Origin: an uncultured Acidobacteriota bacterium | Lineage (GTDB): Bacteria; Acidobacteriota; Vicinamibacteria; Marinacidobacterales; Marinacidobacteraceae | Reading direction: 5' to 3' | DNA length: 24,405 nt | Assembly: GCA_964347715.1 (NCBI GenBank) | Contig: CAYGAO010000014.1 | Span: 1-24,405, forward strand | Shown here: in pieces, positions 1-24,405 of the stretch | How positions within the stretch are numbered: position 1 is the stretch's first letter | How the letters are laid out: every line of letters begins with the position of its first letter | Translations under genes and position numbers: made by a program | The notes under the pieces: generated by a model | The model's input: the letters and a program-made list of their open reading frames with translations, nothing else | Database searches by the model: none | Told to the model about the DNA's origin: nothing

Positions 1-100
1 CGCCATCCGGTGGGGAAAGCGCCCCGCATCCGCCCGGACGACCGGGTTCCCCATCGCTTCGAGGACGGATTCCCATGCGGGGCGTCTTGTCCACAGGCTG
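1..100 (+). mobile_element. MITE/REP-like structured element, copy a (B half in + orientation; the A half, if present, lies outside the window)
   Basis: Roughly 85% identical to 6096..6196 and 22780..22874 (ccggtggggaaagcgccccgcatccg...gaggacggattcccatgcggggcg...ccacaggctg). Ends with TIR-like ...cacaggctg followed by ctgacg. Confidence 0.8.
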
Positions 101-2062: not shown

Positions 2063-3234
2063 CGGAGGCGCCGGAGCCGTTCGACCGCCTCGACGAGGGT
2101 CTCGCGGGTCTTCGAGAAGGTGAACCGGAGCCGCTGCCGGCCCGCCGCCGGATCGGCGTAGAAGCTCGACCCCGGAACCGCCGCCACGCCGACCGTCTCG
2201 ACGAGCCACCGCGCGAAGGCGACATCGTCGGGAAACCCGAACCCCGAGATGTCCGTCATCACGAAGTAGGCCCCCTGGGGTTCGAAGCAGCGGAATCCGG
2301 CCTCCCGCAGGCCGGCGAGCAGCAGGTCGCGCCGTTCGGCGTAGCCCGCCCGCAGCTCCTCGTGGTAGGAGTCGGGCAGCCGGAGCGCGGCGGCTCCCGC
2401 CTCCTGGAGCGGAGCCGGCGCCCCCACGGTGAGGAAGTCGTGCACCTTCCGGATCCCGTCGGTGAGCTCGGGGTCCGCGATCGTCCACCCGACCCGCCAG
2501 CCGGTCACCGAATAGGACTTCGAGAGGCCGCTGATCGTGACCGTCCGCTCGGCCATCCCCGGCAGCGTGGCGATCGGCAGGTGCCGGGCGCCGTCGTAGG
2601 TGATGAACTCGTAGATCTCGTCGGTGACGACGAGGAGGTCGCGCTCGACGGCGAGCGCGGCGATCCGCTCGAGCTCGGCGCGGGTGAACACCTTGCCGCT
2701 CGGGTTGTTCGGGGTGTTCAGAACGATCGCCCGGGTGCGATCCGTGACCTGGGCCCGGAGCGTGTCCTCGTCGAGCGCCCAGTCGGGTTCGAGGAGCCGC
2801 ACATGGCGCGGTTCCGCCCCCGAGAGCACCGCGTCGGGGCCGTAGTTCTCGTAGAACGGCTCGAAGACGATGACCTCGTCGCCCGGGTCCACGAGCGCGA
2901 GCATCGTGGCGATCATCGCTTCCGTGGCCCCGCAGACCACCGTGAAGTGGAGCTCGGGGTCGAGCTCCATCCCGTAGCGCGAGCGGTAGTGCCAGGCGAG
3001 CGCCTCCCGGAGCGAGCGCGACCCCCAGGTGATCGCGTACTGGTTCTCGTCCCGCCGGATCGCCGCGATCGCGGCTTCCTTGACCGCCGCCGGAGCCGGA
3101 AAGTCCGGAAATCCCTGGGCCAGGTTCACCCCCCCGCGCTCCATCGAGAGCCGGGTCATCTCGCGGATGACGGACTCGGTGAAGCGCGACGCCTTCCGGC
3201 TCTGGCGCCCGCGCCGGGGCGCCGGGGCGCTCAC
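2059..3234 (-). CDS. Class I/II PLP-dependent aminotransferase (aspartate/methionine/kynurenine aminotransferase-like)
   Basis: C-terminal 391 aa of ORF 2059..5700(-) read SRFTESVIREMTRLS..GVNLAQGFPDFPAP..NTPNNPSGKVF..SGLSKSYSVTGWRVGW, the hallmark motifs of fold-type I aminotransferases. Start taken as GTG at 3234 overlapping the slt stop (GTGA); ATG candidates lie inside the conserved N-terminal region, so the exact start is uncertain. Confidence 0.85.
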   Translation of the reverse strand: MSAPAPRRGRQSRKASRFTESVIREMTRLSMERGGVNLAQGFPDFPAPAAVKEAAIAAIRRDENQYAITWGSRSLREALAWHYRSRYGMELDPELHFTVVCGATEAMIATMLALVDPGDEVIVFEPFYENYGPDAVLSGAEPRHVRLLEPDWALDEDTLRAQVTDRTRAIVLNTPNNPSGKVFTRAELERIAALAVERDLLVVTDEIYEFITYDGARHLPIATLPGMAERTVTISGLSKSYSVTGWRVGWTIADPELTDGIRKVHDFLTVGAPAPLQEAGAAALRLPDSYHEELRAGYAERRDLLLAGLREAGFRCFEPQGAYFVMTDISGFGFPDDVAFARWLVETVGVAAVPGSSFYADPAAGRQRLRFTFSKTRETLVEAVERLRRLR

Positions 3235-5471: not shown

Positions 5472-5481
5472 CTGCTACAAT
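5453..5481 (+). promoter_or_regulatory. Putative sigma70-like promoter for tmRNA precursor (TGGAGA-17 bp-TACAAT)
   Basis: TGGAGA at 5453..5458, 17-bp spacer, TACAAT at 5476..5481, about 85 nt upstream of the mature tmRNA 5' end (tmRNA is processed from a precursor by RNase P). Overlaps the divergent slt start region. Confidence 0.25.
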
Positions 5482-5561
5482 CCTACCCGTTCGCGCGACG
5501 GTGGCGCAGGTCCGGCTCTCGCGCCGGATCGGTGGTTGCCGGAGATTCTCGCGCGAGAGGA

Positions 5562-5934
5562 GGGGGCGTACTGGGTTCGACGAAGGGACATGAAGCAGCG
5601 ACTGCATGCCGGGGTTCCATCTTCCGTAAACGGTGGAGAACACACAAAAGCCAACAACGAACTGGCACTGGCTGCTTGAAGCCACGTCCTTCCTGGCCAT
5701 GCCTGCCGGGACGGGAAAGGGCGTAGATCAGGCGGGCTCTGCTGGCGGCTCTCCCGCGCCGTCGGTGAGCATCAGGGATAGTTTCCGCGGCGCGATTCGC
5801 CGGGTCGATGCGCTACGGAAGCGAAACGGGGAAAGGCGCCCTCGGGCGCGGGTTCCCGCCACGACGCGGCTAAGCATGTAGAGGTCGTTGTCGAAGACTT
5901 TCGGACGCGGGTTCGATTCCCGCCGCCTCCACCA
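5562..5934 (+). ncRNA. ssrA: tmRNA (SsrA), one-piece, tag reading frame GCC AAC AAC GAA CTG GCA CTG GCT GCT TGA (ANNELALAA*) at 5650..5679
   Basis: 5' GGGGGCGUACUGGGUUCGACG and 3' GGACGCGGGUUCGAUUCCCGCCGCCUCCACCA with encoded CCA. The 7-bp acceptor stem pairs 5562..5568 with 5924..5930 (one G-U). T-arm GGUUCGAUUCC. Internal tag ORF ends in the canonical ALAA-stop. The 3' block GUAGAGGUCGUUGUCGAAGACUUUCGGACGCGGGUUCGAUUCC matches the E. coli tmRNA 3' domain almost base for base. Confidence 0.92.
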
Positions 5935-5973: not shown

Positions 5974-5991
5974 GTCCGGTCGAGGCCTGAC

Positions 5992-6196
5992 GAGCGGTGG
6001 AGAAAGCCCTCGTGTGCCGACGCGGCGCGAAGCACCGCCGGGGGGGTCTCCCTCCCCGCGAAAGCGGGCGGAACGGATCGCGTCAGCGATACGGGCCGCC
6101 ACCCGGTGGGGAAAGCGCCCCGCATCCGTCCGGACGACGGGGTTCCTCGTCTCTCCGAGGACGGATTCTCATGCGGGGCGTTCTATCCACCGGCTG
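5992..6196 (+). mobile_element. MITE/REP-like structured element, copy b (full A+B, + orientation), between the ssrA terminator and the OMP stop codon
   Basis: Left end gagcggtggagaaag, right end ctatccaccggctg (imperfect 16-bp terminal inverted repeats). Internal hairpins include a GAAA-tetraloop stem (ccgccccgcGAAAgcgggcgg) and a long imperfect palindrome in the B half. Flanked by ctgac(g) on both sides. Confidence 0.85.
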
Positions 6197-6204
6197 CTGA
6201 CGGG

Positions 6205-7161
6205 TCAGAACCGGTACTTCAGGTGCAGGCCGAAGCCGTAGAGAGTGCGTTCGTTCGTCTCGAGCGTGACGGTGACCGGATTGCTCCCGTCGAGCCGGTT
6301 GCTCGCCGGGGTATGGCTGCGCAGGCGATCGATGGGGCCGGTCGTGTCGCGGAAGCTCTCGGAGGCCGTCCGCCGACCGGCGACGCCGAGCGAGACCGAA
6401 TCGTTGAGTGCGAAATCCACGCCGACGAGCACCTGGTAGCCGAGCAGGCGCGACTCCAGCTCCGTCTGGTTCGTGCTGGTCGTCGAGGCGAGGTTCTGCT
6501 GGACGGTTCGCAGATCGTCGTGGCGGTCCTCCGGAAAGTACCGGGAGATCGAGGTGATGAGCGCCGGGTCGTCGTTTCGCACCCAGGAGAGGCCGTGGTC
6601 CAGGTTCGTGAAGCCGACGCCGACGCCGAGCCCGATCCAGGGGGTGGCGCGGCTCCGGTTTGTGAAGTCGTAGTACAGGTTCCCGAACAGGTTGCGCGAG
6701 GTGGCGCTCCCGATGCGGTCGTCGGCGGCCACGACCTCGCCGTCGAGCTTCGCAACGGCCACCCCGCCGCTGCTCTCGATCCCGGAGGTCTGGTTGTACA
6801 CAGACTCCCGGTAGAAGTACTCGATCTCGACCCGCAGCCGTTCCGAGCCGGGGAACCGGTAGCCGAGCGCTCCGCCGGCCAGGATGCCGCTCGCGCCATC
6901 GAAAGCGTTGGTCCAGGCCGTCTGCGGCGCGTCCGGGTCCCCGCAGAACGCCGGCATCAGGTCGGTGAACGGATTCAGGTGCTCGTCGCAGATGCTGCCG
7001 GGCGTGTTCGCCGCCGAGCCGCTCAGCTCGAGGGCGGACGAGGAGTTCGTCCCGAGTCCCTGGCGCAGATAGAAGCCGCCCCGGGACTGGGCGCGGCCCT
7101 CGCCGGGGGCGAGGGTGGAGAGCAGGGCGCCGAGCCCGACGAGCGCCGCGAGATGTCTCAT
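6205..7161 (-). CDS. Outer-membrane beta-barrel protein (porin/OMP-like), with signal peptide and C-terminal ...KYRF
   Basis: ORF 6205..7161(-) of 318 aa. MRHLAALVGLGALLSTLAPGEGRAQ is a signal peptide. Alternating hydrophobic/aromatic beta-strand pattern (LRVEIEYFY.., GYQVLVGVDFAL.., LYGFGLHLKYRF) with terminal Phe. The SD sequence AGGAGG lies 8 nt upstream of the ATG at 7161. Confidence 0.7.
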   Translation of the reverse strand: MRHLAALVGLGALLSTLAPGEGRAQSRGGFYLRQGLGTNSSSALELSGSAANTPGSICDEHLNPFTDLMPAFCGDPDAPQTAWTNAFDGASGILAGGALGYRFPGSERLRVEIEYFYRESVYNQTSGIESSGGVAVAKLDGEVVAADDRIGSATSRNLFGNLYYDFTNRSRATPWIGLGVGVGFTNLDHGLSWVRNDDPALITSISRYFPEDRHDDLRTVQQNLASTTSTNQTELESRLLGYQVLVGVDFALNDSVSLGVAGRRTASESFRDTTGPIDRLRSHTPASNRLDGSNPVTVTLETNERTLYGFGLHLKYRF

Positions 7162-7173
7162 TCCGGATCCTCC

Positions 7174-7760
7174 TGTTCGCCGCCCGGAGGAGCTCCGGGG
7201 GCGTCCCGGAATGTTGGCACGCCGGCGCGCCCCGCCGGGCTCGGGGGACGATCCTCACGGTTCCGGCGCTCGCCAGCGCATCGACCAGAGGAGTCCCGAG
7301 ACCGCGATCGTGACCGCGGGAACCAGCCTGCCCCGGGGGGCGGCGGATCGTTCCGGTGGCGCCTGCGGGCCTCCGGTGATTTCGGGATCGGTCCCGCGGG
7401 ACGAGGGTTGCTGACGGTGATGACCGATGTCGGCCAGGTGATTCGGCAACCCGGGTGAACCGGAAAGATCGCAATGGACCCGAATGGATCCGAATTGACC
7501 TGAATTAACCCGAATTAGCCCGAATTGACCTGATTTGGCCCGAATTAGCCTGAATTGACCCGAATTGACCTGATTTGGCCCGAATCGGTCCGTCATGGGT
7601 CCGAACGCGGCTCGGATCGGTGGATCCGCGCCCATCGCGCGCCTCGGCCGCGGCCGGACGGGGCGATCAGCCCCCTGGCCCGCAACCCTTCGAAAAGTTC
7701 GGCGGTCAACCGATCCTGCCAGCCCGTCACGGGTGGGTTCGCCGCCGAGGCGGGCGCTGG
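7174..7760 (+). repeat. Long direct repeat R1 (about 85-90% identical to R2 at 9305..9720). It contains the promoter/RBS-proximal region of the OMP gene, a phased 10-bp array, and a 3' fragment of an AlbA_2/HATPase_c_4-like gene
   Basis: Direct alignment: ctgttcgccgcccgg..gctccggg..gttggcacgccggcgcg..ctcgggggacga.cctcacgg.., then ..cgcctgcgggcctccggtgatttc..ggaaagatcgcaat + decamer array + tgggtccgaacgc..ggatccgcgccca..ggacggggcgatc.agccccctggcccgca. R2 lacks ~80 bp present in R1 (about 7285..7365). Confidence 0.8.
7474..7592 (+). repeat. Phased 10-bp tandem array, about 12 units, consensus GACCCGAATT (read in the other phase, TTGACC hexamers every 10 bp)
   Basis: ggacccgaat ggatccgaat tgacctgaat taacccgaat tagcccgaat tgacctgatt tggcccgaat tagcctgaat tgacccgaat tgacctgatt tggcccgaat cggtccg. 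Confidence 0.85.
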
Positions 7761-7826
7761 CGTCAGGTCGCACTGATCCAGCCCGATCGGGGCGTCGATC
7801 AGGCTGGCGCCGATGGGCTCGTCCAC
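7593..7826 (-). pseudogene. 3' fragment of an AlbA_2/HATPase_c_4-family gene (C-terminal ~45 codons), duplicated together with R1
   Basis: ORF 7593..7826(-) ends ..DRLTAELFEGLRARGLIAPSGRGRGARWARIHRSEPRSDP*, closely parallel to the C-terminus of the intact gene at 9590..11074 (..LRRLQKDLEALRARGSIAPSGRGRGATWARIRRADRRSDP..). Similarity is lost upstream of about 7760. Confidence 0.45.
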
Positions 7827-7996
7827 CGGCGCGGGGGAGGCGCCCCCGCGCGGCGCTTCAGTCAGGATACCGGGCGGGAAGCGGGCAGAGTGAACCGGGA
7901 GGGGCCAGCGCGGCGCGGCGGTTCCGGGCGGGAGGCGTCGTCGCTTCCCCGGCCGGCGAGTGGATCCCGACTCGGCGGGTGGCGGGGGAGGGGCTG

Positions 7997-9100
7997 ATGT
8001 TCCACGACCTCCGAATCCAACGGTTCCGCCTCTTCGAGGACCTCCGGATCGACCGGCTGAGCCGCGTCAACCTGATAGCCGGGAAGAACAACACGGGCAA
8101 GACCACGGTTCTGGAAGCGCTGTTCCTGCTTTCGGGCGGGGGAGCGCCCCAACTCCTGGACCGGACCCTCGGCTTCCGAGGCATCGGCCAGGCCCTCGGT
8201 CAGATCGACCGGGTGCCCGAAACGCACTGGGAACCGCTCTTCTTCGGGTTCGAGGCCGGAGAGCCCATCGCGATCCGGGCCGAGACGGCGCGCCACGGCC
8301 CGCTGAACCTGACGCTGAGGATCGAGCGGCGAGATTCGGTGGAGGTCCGCTCGTCGCCTTCGGGCATCGCCGGGGCCACCGTCGTGGAAGGGGAACCGGC
8401 AGGGCTCGACCTGGGCCCGTCCGATCCCCGGTCGCTTCGGCTGGTCTGGCAACAGCGGGAGGAACAGCCAGCCGAGGGACGAATCGAACTGTTCGCCAAG
8501 GGCCTGCGACTTCAAAACCCCCTGGGGGCGCCGTTCCCGGCGTTCTTCGTCTCCAGCCGAACCCACGACCTGGCGACGGATGCGATGCGGCTGGGTCAGT
8601 TGCGGACGAAGAAGATGGGTGGTCGTCTGACCGAGGCGCTGCAGGCGATCGAACCCCGACTCCGGAGCGTCGAGGACAGTGTCGCGGGCGGCAGTCCCAT
8701 GATCTGGGGAGACATCGGGCTGCCCCGCCTGCTGCCCCTGGCGGCGATGGGAGAAGGAATGGCGGCGGTCACCAGCCTGGTCCTGGCGATGGCCGCTGCC
8801 GAGAAGGGGGTCGTGCTGGTGGACGAGATCGAACGCGGGATACACCACTCGGTGATGGAGGACCTGTGGCGGGTCGTGGACCGGAGTTCACGGGAGTTCG
8901 ACACTCAGGTCATCGCCACCACGCACAGCTACGAATGCCTGATGGCGGCGCAGCGGGCCTTCTCGCAGGACGGCGAGTCGGAGGCGGGGGACTTCCGGTT
9001 CCAACGGCTCGAACGGGCGCGGGACGGCGGCATGCGCTCCGTGGGACTCGATCCGGACGATCTGGCGGCGGTCGCTCGCCACGGTCTTGAAGTGCGCTAA
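7997..9100 (+). CDS. ABC-type AAA ATPase (AAA_21/AAA_15-like; the OLD/AbiL/PARIS-AriA/Septu-PtuA type of ATPase), 367 aa
   Basis: ATG at 7997 preceded by GGGGGAGGGG. Motifs seen: Walker A NLIAGKNNTGKTTVLEAL about 25 aa from the N-terminus, ABC-signature-like LPLAAMGEGMAAV, Walker B VVLVDEIERGIHH and H-loop IATTHS. The ORF-track entry 7595..9100 starts too early, inside R1. Confidence 0.8.
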   Translation: MFHDLRIQRFRLFEDLRIDRLSRVNLIAGKNNTGKTTVLEALFLLSGGGAPQLLDRTLGFRGIGQALGQIDRVPETHWEPLFFGFEAGEPIAIRAETARHGPLNLTLRIERRDSVEVRSSPSGIAGATVVEGEPAGLDLGPSDPRSLRLVWQQREEQPAEGRIELFAKGLRLQNPLGAPFPAFFVSSRTHDLATDAMRLGQLRTKKMGGRLTEALQAIEPRLRSVEDSVAGGSPMIWGDIGLPRLLPLAAMGEGMAAVTSLVLAMAAAEKGVVLVDEIERGIHHSVMEDLWRVVDRSSREFDTQVIATTHSYECLMAAQRAFSQDGESEAGDFRFQRLERARDGGMRSVGLDPDDLAAVARHGLEVR

Positions 9101-9105
9101 AGAGG

Positions 9106-9447
9106 ATGGGCAGGGAGCCCCGAGAGATCACCTCGCCGGCGCAGATTCTCGTCGAGGGGCGAGATGGCGAGCTGTTCTTGAACGTACTGATCGAGGCTCT
9201 GGCAGCGGAGGGGCGACTGACCGAGAAGCGCGCGGACCGCTCCGGGATTTCGTGCGGCAGGTCTCGGAGGGGCCAGGGGAACTTCGAGGCCCTTGATCGC
9301 CCTGTTCGCCGCCCGGACGAGCTCCGGGCGGTCCCGGACCGTTGGCACGCCGGCGCGTCCGCCGGGTCGGCTGGGTGCGGCTCGGGGGACGACCCTCACG
9401 GTCCCAGCGCTCGCCAGCTTCCGGCGGCGCCTGCGGGCCTCCGGTGA
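9106..9447 (+). pseudogene. Truncated Toprim-like (DUF4276/RloB/OLD-like) partner of the upstream ATPase. Only ~60 codons are unique before the ORF runs into repeat R2
   Basis: ATG at 9106 lies 5 nt after the ATPase TAA, with the SD sequence AAAGAGG. N-terminal ..AQILVEGRDGELFLNVLIEAL matches the hV(E)G..E..F Toprim-type opening of DUF4276/RloB/OLD proteins. No downstream DxD-type motif. Sequence from about 9300 onward belongs to repeat R2. Confidence 0.4.
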
Positions 9448-9720
9448 TTTCAGGACGGTTCGCGGACGAGGGCTGCTGACGATGACGACCGATGCCGGAC
9501 CGGGGATTCGGCAACCGGGTGAACCGGAAAGATCGCAATTGACCCGAATTGACCCGAATTGAGCTGATATTGGCCCGAATCGACCTGAATCAATCCGAAT
9601 CGGCCGGCAATGGGTCCGAACGCCGGTCGGCGCGCCGGATCCGCGCCCAGGTCGCGCCCCGGCCGCGCCCGGACGGGGCGATCGAGCCCCTGGCCCGCAG
9701 CGCTTCCAGGTCCTTCTGGA
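9305..9720 (+). repeat. Long direct repeat R2, the copy of R1. It contains the 10-bp array (9536..9606, about 7 units) and the genuine 3' end of the AlbA_2-family gene
   Basis: See R1. Array: gcaattgacc cgaattgacc cgaattgagc tgatattggc ccgaatcgac ctgaatcaat ccgaatcggc cgg. Confidence 0.8.
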
Positions 9721-11074
9721 GACGCCGGAGGTCAACCGGTTGCGAAAGCCCGGCCCGGATATCCCGGAGCGCCAGCGGATGCCCTTCGCGATCCAGCAGC
9801 GCCAGAATCGCCTTTTGCCGGTCTTCGCTCGGCTCCTTCTCCGCGATGGGGTCGGCGCTGCGTTTCGCCGCCCCGGGCTCGGGATCCGGTCGCGTCTCCG
9901 TCCCGGCGCGCCGGAACCGGACGGTCACGTTGCCCGCATCGTCCTCGATCTCGGGGCGGGGGAGGCCGGCCCGTTCCGTTTCTTCCGCGATCTTGACCGT
10001 CCCTCGACCCCACTCCTCGATCACGCCCCGCCGGTAGAAGGTCCGGGCGATGAGCGGATTCCACGGCCGCGACGGGTGCGGCCCGAAGAGCTTTTCGGGG
10101 GTCAACCCGAAGTGGAGGGTTCCGGGCGAGGTGACCTCCAGCCGGTCGTCGTAAACGGCGATTCCCGGCGAACCGCCGCCGACGGAGTAATCGCGGTGGC
10201 AGAGCGCGTTCGCCAGAGCCTCGCGAGTGGCCAGCGTCGGGTAGAGCGGCTCGTCGATGCGATCCATGCGACCCGGTTCGAACCGGCTGGCGATCGGCAG
10301 CGTGTCCCGCAGGAAACGCTCGCCGGCGCGGAGCAGCGCGAAGGCGTTTCCGTAGAACTGCCGGTTGTCGAGGAACTCCATGCGGTCGAGGCCCCGGAAC
10401 CGGGCGACCCGAAGCCGGCACTGCGGCAACTCGACCTCGAGCCGTCGTTCGTTGCCGAACACCACCGCCGCCGCCCGCAAGGGGACGCCGTCCCGGCAGA
10501 GACCCAGACCGGTCAACAACTCCCCGGGATCGCGGGTGCCGGGATCCTCGAGTCGGCCGCGTCGAATCGCCTCTTCCACCGTGCGTCGAATCTCGGTCGC
10601 GTCCAGATCCCCGACCGACCAGCCGGCCGCCGGCTGATTCTCCCAACGCTGGTCACCATGTAGGCGCTCCAACAGTACGCGGTGGTACTCGTCGGTCGGC
10701 ATGACGCGCGTCGTGTTGCCGACCCGGCGGTAGGCAGAGCCACGATACTCGTACGGCTTCGCCGTTCCCGGAGTCACGGAAACGACCACGATCTTCAGCC
10801 CTTCGGCGACGGGCACCCGCTCGACGGCCGGGGACGCCGGCGGGTCGATCCGCGCGAGCTCCTCGCTCAGCTGCTCGATGGTCCGTTCGCTCACCTGCTG
10901 CCCCACGGGCTTGCCCTCCGGCGTCACCCCGAGGAGCACCCGGCCGCCCTGCTGATTCAACATGGCGCAGACCGTCTTGGCGGCCTCGCGGCGCATCCCC
11001 GTCATTTTCTTCAGCTCCAGCGTTTCCGATTCGCCGGCTGCGACCAGCGCCGCGATCCCGGCTGCGGTGATCAT
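9590..11074 (-). CDS. AlbA_2 (divergent AAA, Schlafen-like) + HATPase_c_4 + C-terminal wHTH protein, the kind often annotated as 'putative transcriptional regulator / RecG-like'
   Basis: Start chosen at MITAAGIAALVAAGESETLELKK (ATG about 11074, overlapping the upstream stop as ATGA). Motifs: LELKKMTG..AKTVCAMLNQQGGRVLLGV (AlbA_2), LREALANALCHRDYSVGGGSPGIAVYDDRLEVTSPGTL (HATPase_c_4). The ORF-track N-terminal 67 aa are upstream extension. Confidence 0.8.
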   Translation of the reverse strand: MITAAGIAALVAAGESETLELKKMTGMRREAAKTVCAMLNQQGGRVLLGVTPEGKPVGQQVSERTIEQLSEELARIDPPASPAVERVPVAEGLKIVVVSVTPGTAKPYEYRGSAYRRVGNTTRVMPTDEYHRVLLERLHGDQRWENQPAAGWSVGDLDATEIRRTVEEAIRRGRLEDPGTRDPGELLTGLGLCRDGVPLRAAAVVFGNERRLEVELPQCRLRVARFRGLDRMEFLDNRQFYGNAFALLRAGERFLRDTLPIASRFEPGRMDRIDEPLYPTLATREALANALCHRDYSVGGGSPGIAVYDDRLEVTSPGTLHFGLTPEKLFGPHPSRPWNPLIARTFYRRGVIEEWGRGTVKIAEETERAGLPRPEIEDDAGNVTVRFRRAGTETRPDPEPGAAKRSADPIAEKEPSEDRQKAILALLDREGHPLALRDIRAGLSQPVDLRRLQKDLEALRARGSIAPSGRGRGATWARIRRADRRSDPLPADSD

Positions 11075-12842
11075 GCCCGCCCAGTACCCCGGTCGCCGTC
11101 CGGCTCGGGGAAGGGTTCGGGAAGCCCCCTGACGATCTTCACGGTCTCGACGCTCACATGGACGATCCGCCGGAACGCGGTCACCAGGTCTTCGGGCTTC
11201 TCGAACCACCCGTTCGGGTCGTTCAGTATCCCGCTCCGCTTGTCGCGCGTCACCCGGTAGCGGTCCATGAACCACTCGACCGGCGACCTGCCGTTCACCA
11301 CGTACTCGTGCGCCTCCGGCGGAATCCCGGCCAGACGAACGAACTCGTTCAGTATCAGCACGCTCCGGTCCTCCTTGTCGGCGAACCGCATCCTGCGGGT
11401 GCCGATACGGAAGTGCCTGGACTCCAGCCCCAGGAGCTTCGACGGTACGACCCGGAGCGGGTATTCGGCGCAGGTCTCATAGCCCAGATGGAGTTTCCCC
11501 AACGCTCGTCCGGCCTCCACGAAGGCGTCGAAGTCGGGAGCCATCGGAATCCGGGGAAGGCCCTTGGCCAGGTCGTTCGCGAAACGCTTGCCGTAGGCAG
11601 GCGCGTGGAGAACCCCGTACACATAGTCGAAGATGTCGTCCTTCGTGATCGTGTCGCGCCCGTAGTGATCCCGAAAGAGGTGCAGCGCCCAGTCCGTGAT
11701 GTTGTCCACCGGACCCATATCCGCCCTGAAGAGTTCGTCGTCGTCAAAGACACCCCCGTGGGTACTTGGGGTAGGTCCATCTGGGGAAGCACTGCCCGAA
11801 CTCGAGGAAGTGGAAGTCGGGCATTCGGTCGGCGAGGAGGACCGAGAATGGTTTCGTCGCGCCCCTCCCAGGCACGCAGATGACGCGATTCTCCGCTCGT
11901 ACTGGTAACGCGGGAAACACTGGCCCTTCGACACCAGCTCGAAGTCGGGCATCGTGTCGGCCATGAGCGCCGCTCCTCCCCGAGAGCGGCTTCGATCTTC
12001 GCCGGGTCGGTGGTCACCGGGAGCTCCAGCTCCTGGAGCGAGGCGTCCTCGTCGTTCCGCCCGGCGCGGGTGTCCGAGCAGATCCCGATGTATCGGTGCT
12101 CCACTGTCTGCTGTTCGGCGAAGGCGCGCATGGACTGCTGCAGCAGCGAGATCGAGGGGACCAGGTAGAGGACCCGCCCGCCGATCCCGACCATCTCCTC
12201 GGCGATCCGCATCGCGGTGAAGGTCTTGCCCGTGCCGCAGGCCATGACCAGCTTCCCGCGGTCGGCGCTCCCGAACCCGGCCCGCACCGCCTCGATCGCC
12301 TGTTGCTGGTGCTTCCGCGCGGTGAACGGCTCGGTCCGCCAGCGGAGCGCCTCCGGCGCCTCCTCGAGCAGGTTCGGCCAGTCCACGGGCCGTTTCGCCA
12401 GGTCGGCGAACTGGAGCACCTGGACCTCGGGCCGCTGCCCCCGGATCATGGCGAGCGCGTTCGGCCCCCATCCGCGCCCGGTGTCCACGACCATGCGGGC
12501 GGTGAAGTGCTTCTTCCCGGAGGCGGCGAGGAACGAGTCGAGGTCGCCCTTCGAGATCCGGGTGTTCGGCCGGTAGCACTTGCACTGGATGGCGCAGAAG
12601 CCGCCGTCGCGCTCTTCGGCGACGAGATCCACCCCGGTGTCCCGGGCCGAGCGCCCGAACCTGACGGCCCAGTCGGCCCACCGCGAGACCGAGGCGAACC
12701 GGTCCCGGTAGAGCGGATCCTCCAGGAGGTATCTCCGGATCAGCCGCTCGAAGAGCGCCCCCTGCTCGGCCGGCGAGCCGGACCGCTCGAAGATCTGGTC
12801 CAGGACTGTCCGCAGGTCGTGCATCGGCCGCCGCTCCCCCAT
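11071..12842 (-). pseudogene. Decayed type ISP restriction-modification enzyme. An N-terminal Mrr-like PD-(D/E)xK nuclease and the first helicase motifs run in one frame (12842..~11985). A frameshift then joins a C-terminal type-ISP-like domain in another frame (~11750..11071). Most of the helicase, the whole MTase and most of the TRD are missing
   Basis: ORF 11355..12842(-) reads GVDLVAEERDGGFCAIQCKCY (nuclease), then MACGTGKTFTAMRIAEE (helicase motif I) and YLVPSISLLQQ, and turns to nonsense after ..AALGEERR. ORF 11071..13224(-) carries real-looking sequence only from ..LMADTMPDFELVSKGQCFPRY.. and MGPVDNITDWALHLFRDHYG...HEYVVNGRSPVEWFMDRYRVTRDKRSGILNDPNGWF (the type ISP C-terminal domain pattern) up to the stop. 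Total length ~1.8 kb against ~4.7 kb for an intact enzyme. A ~70-bp internal duplication sits at 11772..11845 and 11896..11975. Confidence 0.65.
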
Positions 12843-13012
12843 CCCGATCCGGGCGGAGCGGATTATCCCCGGCGGGCCGGCGCGCCGGGGGCTTGAATCG
12901 CCGGGGCGTCCCCGAATATGCTCCGCGCGCTTCCGGGCGCCGTCGCGCAGGGTCGGCGGCGGCCCCGGTGTCTCGGAGGGTGCCGCCCGGCGGGGTGGAA
13001 GGAAGGTTGCTG

Positions 13013-14341
13013 ATGCTCAGGCGAATCCGGTGGATCGCGCCGACGGTGCTCCTGTCCGCGCTCCTGTGGGCCGAGCCGGCTCTCGCCCAGGACGGGGACG
13101 CGATGAGCACGGTCGGGCTCGACACGGTCTTCGTCCTCCTGTCGGCGTTCCTCGTGTTCCTGATGCAGGCAGGGTTCGGGATGCTCGAGGCCGGGTTCAT
13201 CCGCGCGAAGAACACCTCGAACATCCTGACGAAGAACTTCCTCGACTACTGCTTCGCCTCGCTCGGATTCTTCATCTTCGGCTACGCGATCATGTTCTCC
13301 GAGGGGAACGGGCTCTTCGGGACGAGCGGCTTCCTGATGCTCGGAGCCGAATCTCCGGCGGATGTGCCGCTGTGGGCGTTCTGGCTGTTCCAGGCGGCGT
13401 TCTGCGGCGCGGCGGCGACGATCGTCGCCGGCGGGATGGCCGAGCGGATGAAGTTCACCGCCTACCTGGCCTACTCCTTCATCATCTCGGCGTTCGTGTA
13501 TCCGGTCGTCGGACACTGGACCTGGGGCGGCGGCTGGCTCGCCGGACTCGACTTCTTCGACTTCGCCGGCTCGACGGTCGTGCACCTGACGGGCGGGGCC
13601 ACCGCGCTCGTGGGCGCGTGGATCCTCGGCCCCCGGCTCGGGAGGTTCAACGCCGACGGCACGGTGAACTTCATCGCCGGGCACTCGGTGCCGCTCGCCA
13701 CGCTCGGGACCTTCATCCTCTGGTTCGGGTGGTTCGGCTTCAACGCCGGATCGAATCTGGCGGTCGGAGACGGCGAGGCGATTTCGCTGATCGCGATCAA
13801 CACGAACCTCGCCGCCGCCGCCGGGGCGCTCGTGACCACCTTCATCTCCTGGATCATCTGGGGGAAGCCGGACCTGTTCTTCACCATGAACGGCGCCCTC
13901 GCCGGGCTCGTCTCCGTCACCGCTCCGTGCGCGGTGGTGAGTCCGTTCGCGGCGATCTGGATCGGCGTCGTCGGAGGGTTCGTGGTCGTCTTCGCCACCA
14001 CCGCGCTCACGAAGATCCGGATAGACGACCCCTGCGGCGCCTTCCCGGTGCACGGGGCCTGCGGGTTCTGGGGCACGCTCGCGGTCGGCCTCTGGGGTCG
14101 CGAGCCGCTCGGCCTCGCCCGGGAAGGCCTCTTCTACGGCGGCGGTTTCGAGCAACTCGGGATCCAGGCGCTCGGCAGCCTCGCCACCGCCGCCTTCATC
14201 ATGGTGGCGATGGGGCTCGTCTTCCTCACGATCAAGGCGCTCTTCGGCCTCCGGGTCTCCCGCGCCGAGGAGATCCGCGGCCTCGACGAGAACGAACACG
14301 GCATGGAGTCCTACACCGGGTTCCAGATCCTGAGCTCCTGA
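13013..14341 (+). CDS. amt: Ammonium transporter (Amt family) with signal peptide
   Basis: ORF 12893..14341(+). The likely start is the ATG at 13013 (MLRRIRWIAPTVLLSALLWAEPALAQ), with GGAAGG upstream. Amt hallmarks seen: DTVFVLLSAFLVFLMQAGFGMLEAGFIR, ..FDFAGSTVVHLTGG.., ..WFGWFGFNAGS.., ..DDPCGAFPVHGACGFWG. Confidence 0.85.
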   Translation: MLRRIRWIAPTVLLSALLWAEPALAQDGDAMSTVGLDTVFVLLSAFLVFLMQAGFGMLEAGFIRAKNTSNILTKNFLDYCFASLGFFIFGYAIMFSEGNGLFGTSGFLMLGAESPADVPLWAFWLFQAAFCGAAATIVAGGMAERMKFTAYLAYSFIISAFVYPVVGHWTWGGGWLAGLDFFDFAGSTVVHLTGGATALVGAWILGPRLGRFNADGTVNFIAGHSVPLATLGTFILWFGWFGFNAGSNLAVGDGEAISLIAINTNLAAAAGALVTTFISWIIWGKPDLFFTMNGALAGLVSVTAPCAVVSPFAAIWIGVVGGFVVVFATTALTKIRIDDPCGAFPVHGACGFWGTLAVGLWGREPLGLAREGLFYGGGFEQLGIQALGSLATAAFIMVAMGLVFLTIKALFGLRVSRAEEIRGLDENEHGMESYTGFQILSS

Positions 14342-14723: not shown

Positions 14724-16139
14724 GTGTCGCTGCGCCAGGTCCGCCGGCTGATCGCCGACAAGGACATCCGCCATGTGGACTTCCGTTTCGCCGACCTCCT
14801 CGGCGGCTGGCGGCACATCACCTATGCGGTCGAGGCCTTCGAGGAGGACATGTTCGTCGGGGGCGTCGGCTTCGACGGCTCCTCGGTCCGGGGCTTCCAG
14901 GGGATCGAGGACTCGGACATGCTGCTCCGCCCCGATCCGGAGAGCGTCTTCGTGGATCCGTTCTACAAGGATCCGACGCTCGTATTCATCTGCAATGTCA
15001 AGGATCCGGTGACGCTGCGCCTCTATTCGCGCGACCCGCGTTACATCGCCGAGAAGGCGACCCGGTTCCTGAACAGCTCCGCGCTCGCGGACACCTGCTA
15101 CATCGGGCCCGAGGCCGAGTTCTACATCTTCGACGATGTCCGGTTCGACCAGACGGTGAACGAGGCGTTCTACCGGGTGGATTCGGCCTGGGGCGGATGG
15201 AACACCGGACGCGAGGAAGGGCCGAATCTCGGCCACAAGCCGGGGCTGAAGCAGGGCTACTTCCGGATGCCGCCGACCGACCCCTACCAGGATGTGCGCT
15301 CGCAGATGGTCACGAACCTCCGGAGCTGCGGCGTGGACGCCGAACTCCACCACCAGGAGGTCGGTAGTGGCGGACAGGCCGAGATCGGCATCCGCTACAA
15401 GCCGCTCATCGAGATGTCCGACGCGGTGATGAAGTTCAAGTACACGATCAAGAACACCGCCCATCAGCACGGGAAGACGGCGACCTTCATGCCGAAGCCG
15501 CTGCTCGGCGACAACGGCTCCGGCATGCACTGCCATGTGAGCCTCTGGCGCGACGGCAAGAACCTGTTCCACGACCAGGACGGCTATGCCGGGCTCAGCG
15601 ACACCGGGCGCTTCTTCATCGGCGGCGTCCTGAAGCACGCCGGTTCGCTCCTCGCGTTCACCTGTCCCACGGCGAACTCCTACCGGCGCCTCGTCCCGGG
15701 TTTCGAGGCGCCGGTGAAGCTCGTCTATTCGCAGCGGAACCGCTCGGCGGCGGTGCGGATCCCGATGTATTCGGCAGCCGCGGCGGCGAAGCGGATCGAG
15801 TTCCGCTGCCCCGATCCGAGCGCGAACCCCTACCTCGCGTTCTCGGCGCTGCTGATGGCCGGGGTGGACGGCATCCTGGAGCGGACCGAGCCGCCCGCTC
15901 CCGTGGACAAGGACATCTACGAGCTGCCGGAGGCCGAACAGCGAAAGATCGGCGACACCCCGCCGACGCTCAAGGCGGCGCTTCGTTCGCTCGAAGACGA
16001 CAACGAGTACCTGTTGCGTGGCGGCGTGTTCACGCCGGATGTCGTGGACACCTGGATTCGCTACAAGCGCGCGAACGAGCTGGCCTACATGGACCAGCGC
16101 CCGCACCCGGCGGAGTTCGCGCTCTACTACGACTGCTAG
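14724..16139 (+). CDS. glnA: Glutamine synthetase type I
   Basis: GTG at 14724. Collinear with E. coli GlnA: ..VDFRFADLLGG.., FDGSS, ..GPEAEFYIFDD.., ..KPLLGDNGSGMHCHVSL.., ..NSYRRLVPGFEAPV.., ..RNRSAAVRIP.., C-terminal PHPAEFALYYDC. Confidence 0.92.
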   Translation: MSLRQVRRLIADKDIRHVDFRFADLLGGWRHITYAVEAFEEDMFVGGVGFDGSSVRGFQGIEDSDMLLRPDPESVFVDPFYKDPTLVFICNVKDPVTLRLYSRDPRYIAEKATRFLNSSALADTCYIGPEAEFYIFDDVRFDQTVNEAFYRVDSAWGGWNTGREEGPNLGHKPGLKQGYFRMPPTDPYQDVRSQMVTNLRSCGVDAELHHQEVGSGGQAEIGIRYKPLIEMSDAVMKFKYTIKNTAHQHGKTATFMPKPLLGDNGSGMHCHVSLWRDGKNLFHDQDGYAGLSDTGRFFIGGVLKHAGSLLAFTCPTANSYRRLVPGFEAPVKLVYSQRNRSAAVRIPMYSAAAAAKRIEFRCPDPSANPYLAFSALLMAGVDGILERTEPPAPVDKDIYELPEAEQRKIGDTPPTLKAALRSLEDDNEYLLRGGVFTPDVVDTWIRYKRANELAYMDQRPHPAEFALYYDC

Positions 16140-16348
16140 CAGCCCGTGGACAAGACGCCCCGCAAGGGAATCCGTCCTCGAAGAGGTGGGGAACCCCTTC
16201 GTCCGGGCGGATGCGGGGCGCTTTCCCCACCGGATGGCGGCCCGAATCGCTGGCGCGATCCGTTCCGCTCTCTTTCGCGGGGAGGGAGGACCCTCCCCGG
16301 CGGCGCTTCGCGCCGCGTCGGCGCACCAGGGACTTTCTCCACAGCCTG
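16140..16348 (-). mobile_element. MITE/REP-like structured element, copy c (full, inverted orientation), starting 1 nt after the glnA TAG stop
   Basis: cagcccgtggacaag...ctttctccacagcctg, the reverse complement of copies b and e. It explains the artefactual N-terminal extension of ORF 16211..17737 and ORF 14232..16367(-). Confidence 0.85.
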
Positions 16349-16441
16349 CTGGCGCCGCATGAGCCAAGCGTCCCCGATCGAACCGACTCCCGGAGGCCGG
16401 ACGCAGGAAACCCCGACCCCCGCCAACGGAGGCCCGCTTAC

Positions 16442-18568: not shown

Positions 18569-18850
18569 CGTTTCAGGCGCCGGCCGGTCGGATTCCGGAA
18601 CGCTGGCCGGCGGCGCGCGGCGCCGAACGAGCCGGTCGTGAGGCGTTCATGGATTCGGTGTCAGGCGACGGGGAATTCGACGGCCTCCCGTGAGCCCGGT
18701 CGGGTTCGGCCATTACGGTTTCGTCCGGCGACACCCCCATCTCGGGCGCCTCGCAACGAGCGCCTCCGCCTGCCGATCGCCGCCGCCGCCGTCTTTCCGG
18801 CCGCGGCGCGGATCCAGCGCGAAAGGCGGAACCTCGGGGCATCGGCGCGG

Positions 18851-19110
18851 AAGCGCTTCGATCCATCGTCCTCGCTCCGGCTCGTCGTGCTCGCTGGCAA
18901 CGGCGGGCGGCTCGGGGGGGCGGAAGCGCTCCGATCCATCGTCCTCGCTCCGTCTCGTCGTGCTCGCCGGCAACGGTGGGCGGCTCGGGGGGGCGGAAGC
19001 GCTCCGATCCATCGTCCTCGCTCCGTCTCGTCGTGCTCGCCGGCAACGGTGGGCGGCTCGGGGGGCGAAATCGAGCACGCCGATCCATCGTCCTCGATCC
19101 GGCTGCCGCG
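18851..19110 (+). repeat. 73-bp tandem repeat, about 3.3 copies (unit aagcgcttcgatccatcgtcctcgctccggctcgtcgtgctcgctggcaacggcgggcggctcgggggggcgg)
   Basis: Unit starts at 18851, 18924 and 18997 (period 73, >90% identity). A fourth unit is diverged. Because the period is not a multiple of 3, ORF-track frames shift between units. Confidence 0.85.
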
Positions 19111-19727
19111 GAGCCGGGCGTATCGGCGGGTCATGAACGGCGCGGTGGCCGGTGGTTCGGAGGCGCCGGCCATGCTCGCGGCGCCGACGCGAGGAACTGC
19201 CGATCGTGCGGCCCCCACCACACCTCGGGGTTCGCATCCGTCCTTCGGCGAACGCCCGGTGATCCTGCCGGTGTGCGCCGCGATCTGGCGGCGGCCTCTT
19301 CCCGGAAGGCGGCCTCTCGCGTGGGCACTGGGTTCGACAGGTTCCACAAGACCGGCGGGGACGGCGGATACCCGGGCGGCTCGGGCCGTCTTCGGTCCGG
19401 GTGAAGCGGAGGCGCCCGGGATCGAAGCGCGTCGAGGCGGCACTCCTGCGGGACCTGCAGTGGTAGCGCGCGCGGAGGAATTTCGAGGGTCGGATCGGCC
19501 GCCGGGAGGTCCCGCTCGGTGGGCGAAACGAGCATTCTAGTTTCCGGGAGGTGAAGAACCGTTCCGCAGGTGGCTCCGGAAGTTCTGTTGCTGGCGAGTC
19601 CGCCGGTGCGGGTGAAGATCGGCCCGGGCTCATTTCCCGCCGGGCGCGTGCCCGAATCCTGCCCGCAGCCTTGCCGTCGGCGACCACGCGGGGTTCCGGC
19701 CCTGCGGGGGCCTGCTTCGGATCGTGC

Positions 19728-19840
19728 CGGGGTCCGACGAATCGCTTCCGCGATTCGCCCCACCGTCTTTCGCGGGGAGGGGGACCCTCCCCGGCGGCGC
19801 TGCGCGCCGCGCCTGTACCCGAGGGACTTTCACTGCAGCC
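19728..19840 (-). mobile_element. MITE/REP-like element, copy d (A half only, inverted), ending directly at the plsC TGA stop
   Basis: cgaatcgcttccgcgattcgcccc...ctttcgcggggagggggaccctccccggcggcgct...gagggactttcactgcagcctg matches the reverse complement of the A half of copy e. The next 3 nt, TCA at 19843..19845, are the plsC stop. Confidence 0.75.
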
Positions 19841-19842
19841 TG

Positions 19843-20619
19843 TCAGGTGACCTTTCGGGGGGTCCACTCTTCACCGAGGGCTGCTTCGAAGACTGCCCGG
19901 ACCCTCGCCATGAGTTCGCTGACCTGCTCCCGGTCGTCCGGGTCCACTCCCGCCGTTTCGACGGGTTCGTGGTAGCGGACGCGCATCACGCCCGGATGGA
20001 TCAGGAAAGAGCCTCGCGGCATGACCTTCGCCGCTCCGCGCACGGTGATCGGAGCGACCGGAACGCCTGCCCGGATCGCGAGGCGGAACCCGCCGGCCTT
20101 GAAGGGCCCGAGTCTTCCGGTGCGGCTCCGGGTGCCCTCCGGGGCGATCACCAGCGATCGTCCGGCGCGAAGCGCCTCGCCCGCGGCCTCGAGGCTCGCG
20201 CGCGCGGCGACCGGGTTCCGGCGGTCCACCGGGATGAACCCCACCGCGCGGAACGCCCAGCCGACCAGGGGCACCCGGAACGCCTCCTTCTTGATCAGGG
20301 TGGTGTGCACCCCCGGCAGCAGGTAGAGCACCAGCGGCATGTCGAGCAGGGATACATGGTTCACCAGGTAAACCCGGGTGCGCCGCGGTTCGAGCCGGTT
20401 CCGGTCGCGCTCCTCGAACCGGATGCCGGTGATCCCCCAGCACACCCGGACGATGACGCGCCCGAGTTCGTAGCCGAGGCGGTGGCGGCCGCTGAACAGA
20501 TCTCCGAGCGGGATCAGGACGAGGCCGAGGATCAGGAGGACCGGCAGCGCGAGAGCGATTCCGGCCGTGCCGATGACCGCGCGGATGGTTCGCGGGGCGC
20601 CGAGCCCTTCTCCGGACAA
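19843..20619 (-). CDS. plsC: 1-acyl-sn-glycerol-3-phosphate acyltransferase (lysophospholipid acyltransferase)
   Basis: N-terminal TM helix, acyltransferase motif I YLVNHVSLLDMP (HX4D) and motif III VIAPEGTRSRTG. Confidence 0.8.
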   Translation of the reverse strand: MSGEGLGAPRTIRAVIGTAGIALALPVLLILGLVLIPLGDLFSGRHRLGYELGRVIVRVCWGITGIRFEERDRNRLEPRRTRVYLVNHVSLLDMPLVLYLLPGVHTTLIKKEAFRVPLVGWAFRAVGFIPVDRRNPVAARASLEAAGEALRAGRSLVIAPEGTRSRTGRLGPFKAGGFRLAIRAGVPVAPITVRGAAKVMPRGSFLIHPGVMRVRYHEPVETAGVDPDDREQVSELMARVRAVFEAALGEEWTPRKVT

Positions 20620-22528: not shown

Positions 22529-22671
22529 CCAGAGGGACTTTCCCGCGACGACGGCCCGGATCTCCTGGATGCGGTCGAGAGCGGCGTCCCGTTCCGTGCG
22601 GGGCGGGGCCGGGGTGTCCGCCGGGCGCGAACGCGCGCGCGACGAGATCGGCGGCACGGCTCGGGTCTCAG

Positions 22672-22874
22672 CAGCCTGTGGAGAAAGTCCCTCGCGGGCC
22701 GAGGCGGCGCGGAGCGCCGCCGGGGAGGGGTGCGGCGAGGGACCTCCCGCCCCGCGAAAGCGGGCGGAACAGATCGCGCGAGCGATTCGGGCCGCCAGCC
22801 GGTGGGTCCGGACGACGGGGTTGCCCATCTCTTCGAGGACGGATTCCCATGCGGGGCATTTTCTCCACCGGCTG
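22672..22874 (+). mobile_element. MITE/REP-like structured element, copy e (full, + orientation), flanked by a 4-bp direct repeat TCAG. The right TCAG contains the stop codon of the DUF3467 gene
   Basis: cagcctgtggagaaagtccctcgcg...ggattcccatgcggggcattttctccaccggctg. The terminal inverted repeats are cagcctgtggagaaa and tttctccaccggctg. TCAG at 22668..22671 and 22875..22878. Confidence 0.88.
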
Positions 22875-23198
22875 TCAGTGGACGAGCGTGACCCCGGGGC
22901 TGCTCGGCTTCGGGGGCTCGTCGTTCTCCGCTTCCTCGACGGCGCGCAACTGCGTCTCGAGCATCTTGATCAGCGCCGGGACGAGCCGAAACGGCATCGT
23001 CACCCGCGCCTTCGGCTCGGCGTGCACGACCGCATCTTCGGTGATCTCGGTCGAGGCGAGGTCCTCCGGCTGGATTCCGGTGAGGCTGCAGAAGGTGAGC
23101 GTCAGGTCGAACGGCGAATGCGTGGCTTCGCAGAAGTTCGCGTACACCTCGGGGCAGGAGGCGTCCCGACGCGCCTTGATCTTGAAAGTCCGCTTCAT
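22875..23198 (-). CDS. DUF3467-family small protein
   Basis: ..VYANFCEATHSPFDLTLTF..KARVTMPFRLVPALIKMLETQLRAVEE resembles the DUF3467 pattern (..ITHSP.EFVLDF..). The stop codon lies inside the TCAG flank of MITE copy e. Confidence 0.5.
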   Translation of the reverse strand: MKRTFKIKARRDASCPEVYANFCEATHSPFDLTLTFCSLTGIQPEDLASTEITEDAVVHAEPKARVTMPFRLVPALIKMLETQLRAVEEAENDEPPKPSSPGVTLVH

Positions 23199-24330: not shown

Positions 24331-24344
24331 GGCGGAAATCCTAG

Positions 24345-24405
24345 CAGGTCGTGGAGAAAGTCCCTCGCGCGCCGACGCGGCGCGAAGCGCCGCCGGGGAG
24401 GGGCC
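24345..24405 (+). mobile_element. MITE/REP-like element, copy f (start of the A half, truncated by the window end)
   Basis: caggtcgtggagaaagtccctcgcgcgccgacgcggcgcgaagcgccgccggggagggg aligns with the A half of copies b and e. Preceded by ...cctag. Confidence 0.75.

Follow-up and report, generated by a model that had tools for sequence, protein, structure and literature searches.

Comparison with described repeat families

Bacterial MITEs (miniature inverted-repeat transposable elements) are class II, non-autonomous elements of 50-800 bp with terminal inverted repeats (TIRs) of at least 10-15 bp and target-site duplications (TSDs) of 2-10 bp, and they encode no transposase (PMC11602168). A repeat of ~205-225 bp that occurs six times in a 24,405-nt stretch of contig CAYGAO010000014.1 (hereafter, the window; ~71% G+C) is, with a probability that we put at about 0.9, a real non-coding MITE, that is, a non-autonomous DNA transposon. 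We read it in this way because of its TIRs, its 4-bp TSD, an insertion sequence (IS) with matching ends, empty sites, the restoration of an interrupted CoxL-type gene upon removal of the element, and further copies on other contigs. The same findings support the original prediction, made from the letters of the window, that the repeats form a MITE-like, non-coding mobile family. The element agrees with the bacterial MITE definition in every respect that could be tested: size, lack of coding, TIRs, TSD, a partner IS in the same community, and insertion polymorphism. As a family it has not been described before, but the kind of element is well known, and no new mechanism is involved. In the literature, we found no described MITE of this type for Vicinamibacterales or Acidobacteria.

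The likeness to bacterial MITEs covers the length of 203-225 bp, the TIRs, the 4-bp TSD, the absence of coding, the mainly intergenic location, the large number of copies, and the matching IS. The element differs from them in that its interior does not come from the partner IS, in that unusually many copies lie exactly at stop codons, in its very high density of about one copy per 4-11 kb, and in its host, an uncultured Vicinamibacterales-like acidobacterium. Some interest attaches to the very dense occurrence of the copies, to their placement at stop codons, to the interior unrelated to the partner IS, and to the active diversification of the family.

Elements of the IS5 group, according to ISfinder descriptions, generate a 4-bp TSD at a YTAR-like target. 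Similarly, the putative partner IS of the MITE encodes a protein with DUF772 and DDE_Tnp_1 domains, has CAG-initiated TIRs that share the GAAGTCGG motif with an element of plasmid pLB1, and is flanked by a 4-bp TSD (ATAG vs. CTAA in pLB1). In contrast to the IS5 family, the target of the MITE is the looser Y-Y-R-R, in which position 3 may be G, the partner transposase scores under the NCBIfam IS5/IS1182 cut-offs, and the window holds only the non-autonomous derivative. The Correia elements (CREE) of Neisseria, RUP, and ERIC/IRU are small, high-copy, TIR-bearing, intergenic, and non-autonomous; they can form long hairpins and frequently share transcripts with adjacent genes. In Correia elements, the duplicated target is TA and the TIRs measure ~26 bp. 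As these families are generally described, the element resembles them functionally but shares neither sequence nor TSD with them, and no promoter, terminator, or RNase III function is predicted for it. Sequences of the REP/BIME type are 20-40 bp long, have no TIR and no TSD, and are tied to RAYT genes (PMC3733652). The element is likewise extragenic, G+C-rich, palindromic, and high in copy number; however, with its ~210 bp, TIRs, and TSD it lies outside the REP/BIME definition, and the REP-like label given to it earlier was dropped, since no REP or RAYT features were found.

Copies of the element in the window

Self-comparison in both orientations, MAFFT alignment, and nhmmer recovered all six copies listed in the original prediction, with coordinates agreeing within ~2 nt. 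They comprise three full copies, one short copy, and two copies cut by the window edges:

1..100, + strand: copy a, truncated by the window start to its 3' 100 nt (nhmmer model positions 110-211, alignment)
5991..6196, + strand: copy b, full length, 206 nt (self-comparison, nhmmer, TSD)
16140..16348, - strand: copy c, full length, 209 nt (self-comparison, nhmmer, empty site in contig L131)
~19728..19842, - strand: copy d, short, A half only (alignment, nhmmer, terminal motif)
22672..22874, + strand: copy e, the locus reported originally, full copy, 203 nt (alignment, nhmmer, TSD, empty site in L131)
24345..24405, + strand: copy f, truncated by the window end to its 5' 61 nt (alignment, nhmmer, terminal motif)

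The terminal motif CAGGCTGTGGAGAAAG, with up to three mismatches allowed, occurs 6 times in the window, against 0.07 occurrences expected. Every copy is placed outside genes, as judged by GC-frame analysis and Pfam matches, and both orientations occur. The right end of copy a (...CCACAGGCTG) is at position 100 and is followed by CTGA at 101-104. Copy b is found downstream of the tmRNA gene (5562-5934), at a distance of 57 nt, and 8 nt separate it from the stop codon (6205-6207) of a convergent gene encoding an outer-membrane beta-barrel protein; its TSD is CTGA (5987-5990 and 6197-6200). Copy c separates glnA (14724-16139), which belongs to an amtB-glnK-glnA cluster, from a Band 7/SPFH gene. 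Its flanks, CTAG (16136-16139) and CTGG (16349-16352), match at 3 of 4 positions, and the glnA stop codon TAG (16137-16139) is within CTAG. Copy d represents a second subfamily (GGTGGGGCGAATCGCGGAAGCGATTCG) and has an uncertain inner boundary (19718-19738); its left end (19842) abuts TCAG (19843-19846), within which the acyltransferase gene 19843-20619(-) has its stop codon (TCA on the + strand). Copy e, which has an internal deletion of 18 nt, is flanked by TCAG at 22668-22671 and 22875-22878, and the right duplication holds the stop codon (22875-22877) of a DUF3467 gene, 22875-23198(-). Copy f is preceded by CTAG (24341-24344) and lies upstream of a 93-aa open reading frame (ORF).

The 89-kb long-read contig L128 (ENA ERZ25070786) is 99.75% identical to the window over their shared part, and its counterpart of copy f is complete (19627-19835, 209 nt, flanks CTAG/CTGG). 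The start and the end of the window inside copies fit an assembly broken at a dispersed repeat. A circular window, with the end joined to the start inside one copy, was considered and rejected: ~44 nt of the element would be missing, and L128 continues past the window end. Separate half copies, which had been proposed for both halves, are real as A-only forms (copy d). Copies a and f are merely cut by the window, copy f being of full length in L128, and among all copies found there was no B-only one.

Target-site duplications and stop-codon placement

For the analysis of TSDs, the element ends were set at CAG...CTG, and the four bases on each side were compared in 19 independent copies. The 4-bp duplication is perfect in nine of them, and a further eight match at three of the four positions. 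The next four bases outward, taken as an offset control, yielded no perfect duplication, the mean number of matching positions being 0.95 there vs. 3.32 at the flanks. Since a perfect duplication is expected by chance with a probability of 0.0074 per copy, the binomial P for the observed number is ~6e-15; these statistics bear out the view that the TCAG direct repeat at copy e is a TSD. The duplicated sequences include CTGA, TCAG, CTAG, GTAG/CTAC, TTAG, TTGA, and TTGG. They give the target consensus Y-Y(T>C)-R(A/G)-R, with position weights of Y, T>C, A/G, and G>A.

In 7 of the 17 copies examined, the element boundary is the exact end of a long ORF with coding-like G+C content at third codon positions (GC3), and in these seven the TAG or TGA of the gene makes up the last three bases of the duplicated target. 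Three such cases are in the window: copies c (glnA), d (acyltransferase), and e (DUF3467). In a genome of ~71% G+C, targets such as CTAG, CTGA, TTAG, and TTGA would approximate a pyrimidine followed by a stop codon. Insertions within genes would presumably be purged by selection in a compact, high-G+C genome, and the surviving copies would accumulate in short intergenic spacers, often with a stop codon ending the duplicated target. We infer that target preference combined with purifying selection may explain both the intergenic and the stop-codon placement.

Empty sites and insertion events

Contig L131, from the same sample, has the gene order of the window at 75-86% nucleotide identity and, judging by this divergence, represents a related but distinct genome. 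Three sites occupied in the window are empty there:

Site of copy c (after glnA): spacer ~270 nt in the window, ~25 nt in L131; element absent in L131, where glnA ends TGC TGA
Site of copy e (after the DUF3467 gene): spacer ~280 nt in the window, ~112 nt in L131; element absent in L131
Site of copy a (end of the TPR gene): the ORF enters the element in the window and has its own stop codon in L131; element absent in L131

At the last of these sites, the minus-strand TPR-protein ORF (from ~2062) runs into copy a with no stop codon before the window start (...AAGNPGRQQPVDKTPRMGIRPR...). The C-terminus of the TPR protein may have been replaced upon insertion of copy a, the L131 orthologue having kept its own TGA. 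L131 also has a copy of its own beside the tmRNA gene. As that copy differs from copy b in orientation and in distance from the gene, it is an independent insertion.

In a Vicinamibacterales metagenome-assembled genome (MAG; contig L001), a full copy at 2300-2520 interrupts the C-terminal region of a CoxL-type gene. Deletion of the 221 nt of this copy and of one 4-nt duplication joins ...NPLGV to EGIGEAANIGSTPAVANAV..., and the restored frame aligns without gaps across the junction with the CO dehydrogenase large chain 8uem_A (E 4e-41). This comparison was made with CoxL sequences of the PDB, as the Pfam model MoCoBD_2 stops before the junction. The MITE adds 225 nt (221 + 4) that contain no stop codon in the frame of the gene, so the insertion is in-frame. 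An upstream frame break is also present in this gene, which may be a pseudogene. The empty sites in L131 and the restoration of the CoxL-type gene show the insertion of the element directly.

Structure and coding potential of the element

The twelve full copies are 203-225 nt long and 85-97% identical to each other (mean 91%); length variants extend up to 290 bp, owing to internal duplications, and include short forms of 122-124 bp. TIRs of 16 bp, as predicted originally, are real (left CAGGCTGTGGAGAAAG, right CTTTATCCACCGGCTG), but they are not perfect inverted matches: complementarity is 13/16 in the consensus and 11-14/16 in single copies, from 14/16 in copy e to 11/16 in copy c. The interior contains a GCGGCGC-GAA-GCGCCGC hairpin, a G/C-rich segment with a 12-nt indel, in which longer forms duplicate CGGGGAGGGGTG, and a GGCGG..GGATCGC-NNNN-GCGATTC..CCGCC hairpin; a long imperfect palindrome is present in the B half. 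The CCGC-GAAA-GCGG tetraloop hairpin is intact in only 5/12 full copies, and a conserved GNRA tetraloop is therefore not a feature of the family. Neither was the expected rod-like fold of the whole element obtained. The predicted fold is multibranched, with a closing TIR stem and three or four internal hairpins, and is more stable than those of shuffled sequences (z -4.2 for the + strand and -3.4 for the - strand).

Five of the six reading frames of the element are open, as expected at 71% G+C. The substitutions among the 12 full copies fall into the three codon phases in the numbers 46, 40, and 46, with no 3-nt periodicity (p = 0.76). The element is therefore non-coding, and the possibility named at the outset as one that would undo the MITE reading, a repeated coding segment, was not realized. 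The recommended comparison with Rfam was also made. At the gathering threshold, the window contains only tmRNA and two tRNAs and the element has no match; in a permissive search, the best matches of the element reached 13-14 bits, with E above 1.

The family is undergoing active diversification, manifested by the 12-nt indel, (CTGG)n arrays, internal duplications, and short forms. Two short forms of 122-124 nt end at an internal pseudo-end, ..GCGATTCG[A/G][C/G]CTG, and have duplications of their own (TTGA/TTGA and TTGG/TTAG), so the A half is able to move alone. The (CTGG)n microsatellite, of 2 to 6 units, is expanded within the A half at L131 10240-10270 and in L132 near 11340 and 17770. At L124 13013-13335, a full MITE is followed directly by a short A-only copy; the head-to-tail junction shares GGCTG (..CCACCGGCTGTGGCGAAAG..), the left end of the second copy overlapping the right end of the first.

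Copies on other contigs

With nhmmer we identified, besides the 6 window copies, 23 copies at other loci (L001, L100, L122, L124-L126, L131, and L132). The numbers per contig are two in L122, four in L124, two in L125, five in L126, one in L131, and five in L132; L123 has none. A pattern scan of GTDB genomes found at least one locus, contig CBDCCO010000001.1 of the Vicinamibacterales MAG (L001), the first 8 kb of which hold one full and two short copies. The scan of metagenomes with the A-half hairpin pattern GCGGCGCGNAGCRCCGCCGGGG was unspecific: among the fetched loci L002-L121, only L100 has a copy, a diverged one. IMG/VR viral contigs yielded no copy, with 0 matches to the B-half pattern and 9 matches to a 17-mer that are due to chance. 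Further copies thus exist on other contigs and in the Vicinamibacterales MAG, and the repeats are not confined to the window, an outcome that would have spoken against a mobile family.

When protein collections were searched with the concatenated six-frame translation of copy c, 72 predicted proteins of ENA and NCBI assemblies were found to read through copies, with 44-91% identity over an element-sized stretch. In these proteins the element part is joined to unrelated real domains or to nothing, appears in different frames, and forms the N- or C-termini of unrelated proteins. With the lead copy of each locus left out, 13 copies were counted in 142 kb outside the window. Taken together with 6 copies in the 24 kb of the window, this gives an overall density of about one copy per 4-11 kb, from which hundreds of copies per genome may be reasonably extrapolated.

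The similarity between L126 and the window is confined to the elements. At L126 11800-14015, an insert of ~1.9 kb divides a MITE copy into 5' (model positions 2-140) and 3' (73-210) portions; the insert is bounded by the inverted sequences TGACTTTGTCGG / CCGACAAAGTCA and has ~68 nt of MITE sequence on both sides. Either a further IS with a long duplication or a rearrangement may underlie this arrangement. Two MITE copies with identical flanks, 634 bp apart, are present at L125 9928-10150 and 10562-10784; they represent either a tandem segmental duplication holding the element or an assembly artefact.

A candidate autonomous partner

P0063, one of the 72 read-through proteins, contains a transposase domain, DUF772, and is located at L122 10143-11891 in a decayed IS that is bounded by CAGGCTGTGGAGAAAGTCGG and ...CCTTTCTTCCACAGCCTG, contains multiple frameshifts (at least 7 frame breaks), and has a MITE nested near its left end. 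The conceptually repaired L122 transposase, used as a query, identified an intact homologue of 476 aa, P0073, with 92% identity. It is encoded by a clean 1496-bp IS at L123 9958-11453, in the same metagenome sample; the ends of this IS are CAGCCTGTGGAGAAAGTCGG (left) and ...CTTCGTCCACGGGCTG (right), and a perfect ATAG/ATAG duplication marks its insertion in an amidohydrolase gene. Of the first 18 nt of the MITE, 17 are matched by the left end of the IS, CAGCCTGTGGAGAAAGTC, and the right ends of the two have a CCAC-GGCTG core in common. A truncated third copy of the IS is on contig L125, so that decayed copies are found on two MITE-bearing contigs, L122 and L125.

P0073 and the repaired L122 protein match the Pfam families PF05598 (DUF772) and PF01609 (DDE_Tnp_1), with a weak match to PF13751. 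The placement of the partner transposase in the IS5/IS1182 superfamily is safe; its exact family is not. The nearest annotated relative of P0073, with 54% identity, is the 'IS5 family transposase' of plasmid pLB1 (AB244976.1, 39.6-41.0 kb), whose element has similar CAG-initiated TIRs (23 nt, 83% complementary) and a 4-bp CTAA/CTAA TSD. As the MITE and the IS are alike in TSD length and in target type, both agree with an enzyme of the IS5 type. A transposase like P0073 would bind the shared termini (CAGSCTGTGGAGAAAGTC) in trans and would insert the MITE at staggered 4-bp targets, Y-Y(T)-R(A/G)-R, with duplication of the target as a result. An IS5-like transposase from the same metagenome is thus probably the mobiliser of this MITE, an assignment in which our confidence is somewhat lower than in the MITE nature of the element.

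Several observations weigh against this assignment or against the MITE reading in its simplest form. The link with the partner is based on shared termini, equal TSD length, and co-occurrence. At the right end, the agreement between the MITE and the IS is lower (~11-12 of 20 nt), and the interior of the MITE is unrelated to the IS, which means that the MITE is not a simple deletion derivative. P0073 scores below the NCBIfam cut-offs of its best-scoring models (168 bits vs. 270 for IS1182 and 105 bits vs. 140 for IS5_4). The intact IS is on a different metagenome contig, the genome from which the window comes being a presumed carrier at most, and a scan of the window detected no IS copy. Finally, variability is higher in the TIRs than in the interior, contrary to what would be expected if nothing but the ends mattered.

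Two further features of the IS-bearing contigs are of note. At L122 10190-10222, a run of ~30 G separates the left end of the decayed IS from the nested MITE and may have arisen as an artefact of long-read assembly. On the 27-kb contig L123, positions 535-5912, 4 kb from the intact IS, are occupied by a type I-C CRISPR-Cas operon (Cas5d, Csd1, Cas7, Cas4, Cas1, and Cas2).

Alternative explanations

The MITE could be mobilised by a different transposase, e.g., by another IS5/IS1182-like element of the same genome. The merely moderate match of the right ends and the unrelated interior would fit such a scenario, as would the presence of further DDE insertion sequences on the same contigs (PF01609 in L122 and PF13701 in L125) and the existence of thousands of homologous transposases. 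We nevertheless hold it to be quite unlikely: the first 17-18 nt are identical only to those of the L123 IS, a search for the TIR motif in L122, L123, and L125 revealed no other element ends, and the TSD length and target type are common to the MITE and the L123 IS. The intergenic location, high G+C content, abundance of palindromes, and high copy number would suit REP/BIME-type palindromes spread by RAYT, an IS200/IS605-like Y1 transposase, but the unit is ~210 nt and not 20-40 nt, TIRs and a 4-bp TSD are present, the ends are not defined by a GTAG or CGTC head, and Y1 transposases are absent among the genes called on all fetched contigs; such an origin is highly improbable. An equally negligible chance is left to the copies being small structured RNA genes or a repeated protein-coding segment instead of mobile DNA. 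The five open frames, through which gene callers pass, and the strong predicted structure might suggest it. However, codon periodicity is absent, a G+C content this high is expected to leave frames open, Rfam has no matching family, the copies in predicted proteins appear in different frames and at the termini of unrelated proteins, and the TIRs, the TSD, and the empty sites together contradict it.

A different kind of proposal would add to the MITE nature of the element and not exclude it, namely that the MITE has also been co-opted, its hairpin-rich core acting at the 3' ends of genes as an RNA-level stabiliser, an RNase target, or a bidirectional terminator that is kept by selection. It would be in line with the strong predicted fold (z -4.2 and -3.4), with the start of 7/17 copies exactly after a stop codon, with an interior more conserved than the TIRs (0.52 vs. 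0.81-1.25 substitutions per column), and with a few compensatory changes in the GGCGG/CCGCC stem when diverged subfamilies are compared. The 12 full copies, however, show 0 compensatory pairs, and the addition of diverged copies gives 2 covarying pairs (5 cells, one stem), which related sequences alone can give. The covariation score obtained with the diverged and short copies was reached by 3 of 500 shuffles, and related sequences can reach such values unconstrained. Moreover, a consensus scan for terminators and promoters made no call at any copy, terminator-like sites included, Rfam has no match, the copies face either way with respect to adjacent genes, and the related genome (L131) has no element at the same sites. 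There is no solid evidence of a selected RNA structure in the element; the lower variability of the interior than of the TIRs is mildly odd and keeps co-option alive as an idea of low probability, and we consider it unlikely. Also doubtful, and to a slightly greater degree, is the bolder version in which the IS-unrelated, hairpin-rich core was recruited as a portable 3'-end module that would stabilise or terminate transcripts, or in which the combination of transposase and target was adapted to landing precisely on stop codons. If either were true, the spread of the MITE would systematically rewrite 3' untranslated regions, and in some cases C-termini as well, throughout a soil acidobacterial lineage that is abundant; the TPR ORF entering copy a and the in-frame, stop-free 225-nt insertion in the CoxL-type gene exemplify altered coding sequences.

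Significance of the family and other features of the window

In terms of annotation, the family explains breaks of short-read contigs in this lineage, the window itself beginning and ending inside copies, as well as chimeric or extended proteins of gene callers (72 were found) and ORFs that start or end in repeats. It documents a very active pair of a MITE and an IS5-like element in Vicinamibacterales, a widespread but poorly studied soil group, and a target (pyrimidine + TAG/TGA-like) through which, in a genome of high G+C content, insertions come to lie exactly on stop codons. The insertion polymorphism between related genomes of one sample is a convenient strain-level marker, and the pair of TIRs and transposase could be tried as a genetic tool.

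A block of 7 kb (window 6200-12850) between the tmRNA gene and amtB contains the beta-barrel outer-membrane protein gene, an AAA_15/AAA_21 ATPase, a Schlafen protein with AlbA_2 and HATPase_c_4 domains, and remnants of a type ISP restriction enzyme. It is absent from the syntenic L131, where the distance from tmRNA to amtB is under 1 kb, and looks like a defence-type island inserted beside tmRNA. The restriction enzyme remnants (11071-13224, - strand) consist of an N-terminal part with Mrr_cat_2 and ResIII (ORF 11355-12842) and a C-terminal part with Type_ISP_C (ORF 11071-13224), in different frames and of ~590 aa together; they probably stem from a type ISP restriction-modification gene with a frameshift and an internal deletion. 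Direct repeats of ~330-450 bp (7238-7691 and 9379-9706; 73-93% identity) lie before and after the AAA ATPase gene (7595-9100), each holding an array of the 10-nt unit AATTGACCCG, with 11.3 and 5.3 copies, respectively. Beside copy d, at 18847-19101, in a region with no Pfam match, a 73-nt unit is repeated 3.5 times at 92% identity. The alignment of the short-read contig L129 with this region falls into two overlapping pieces and is suggestive of variation in copy number or of uncertainty in the assembly.

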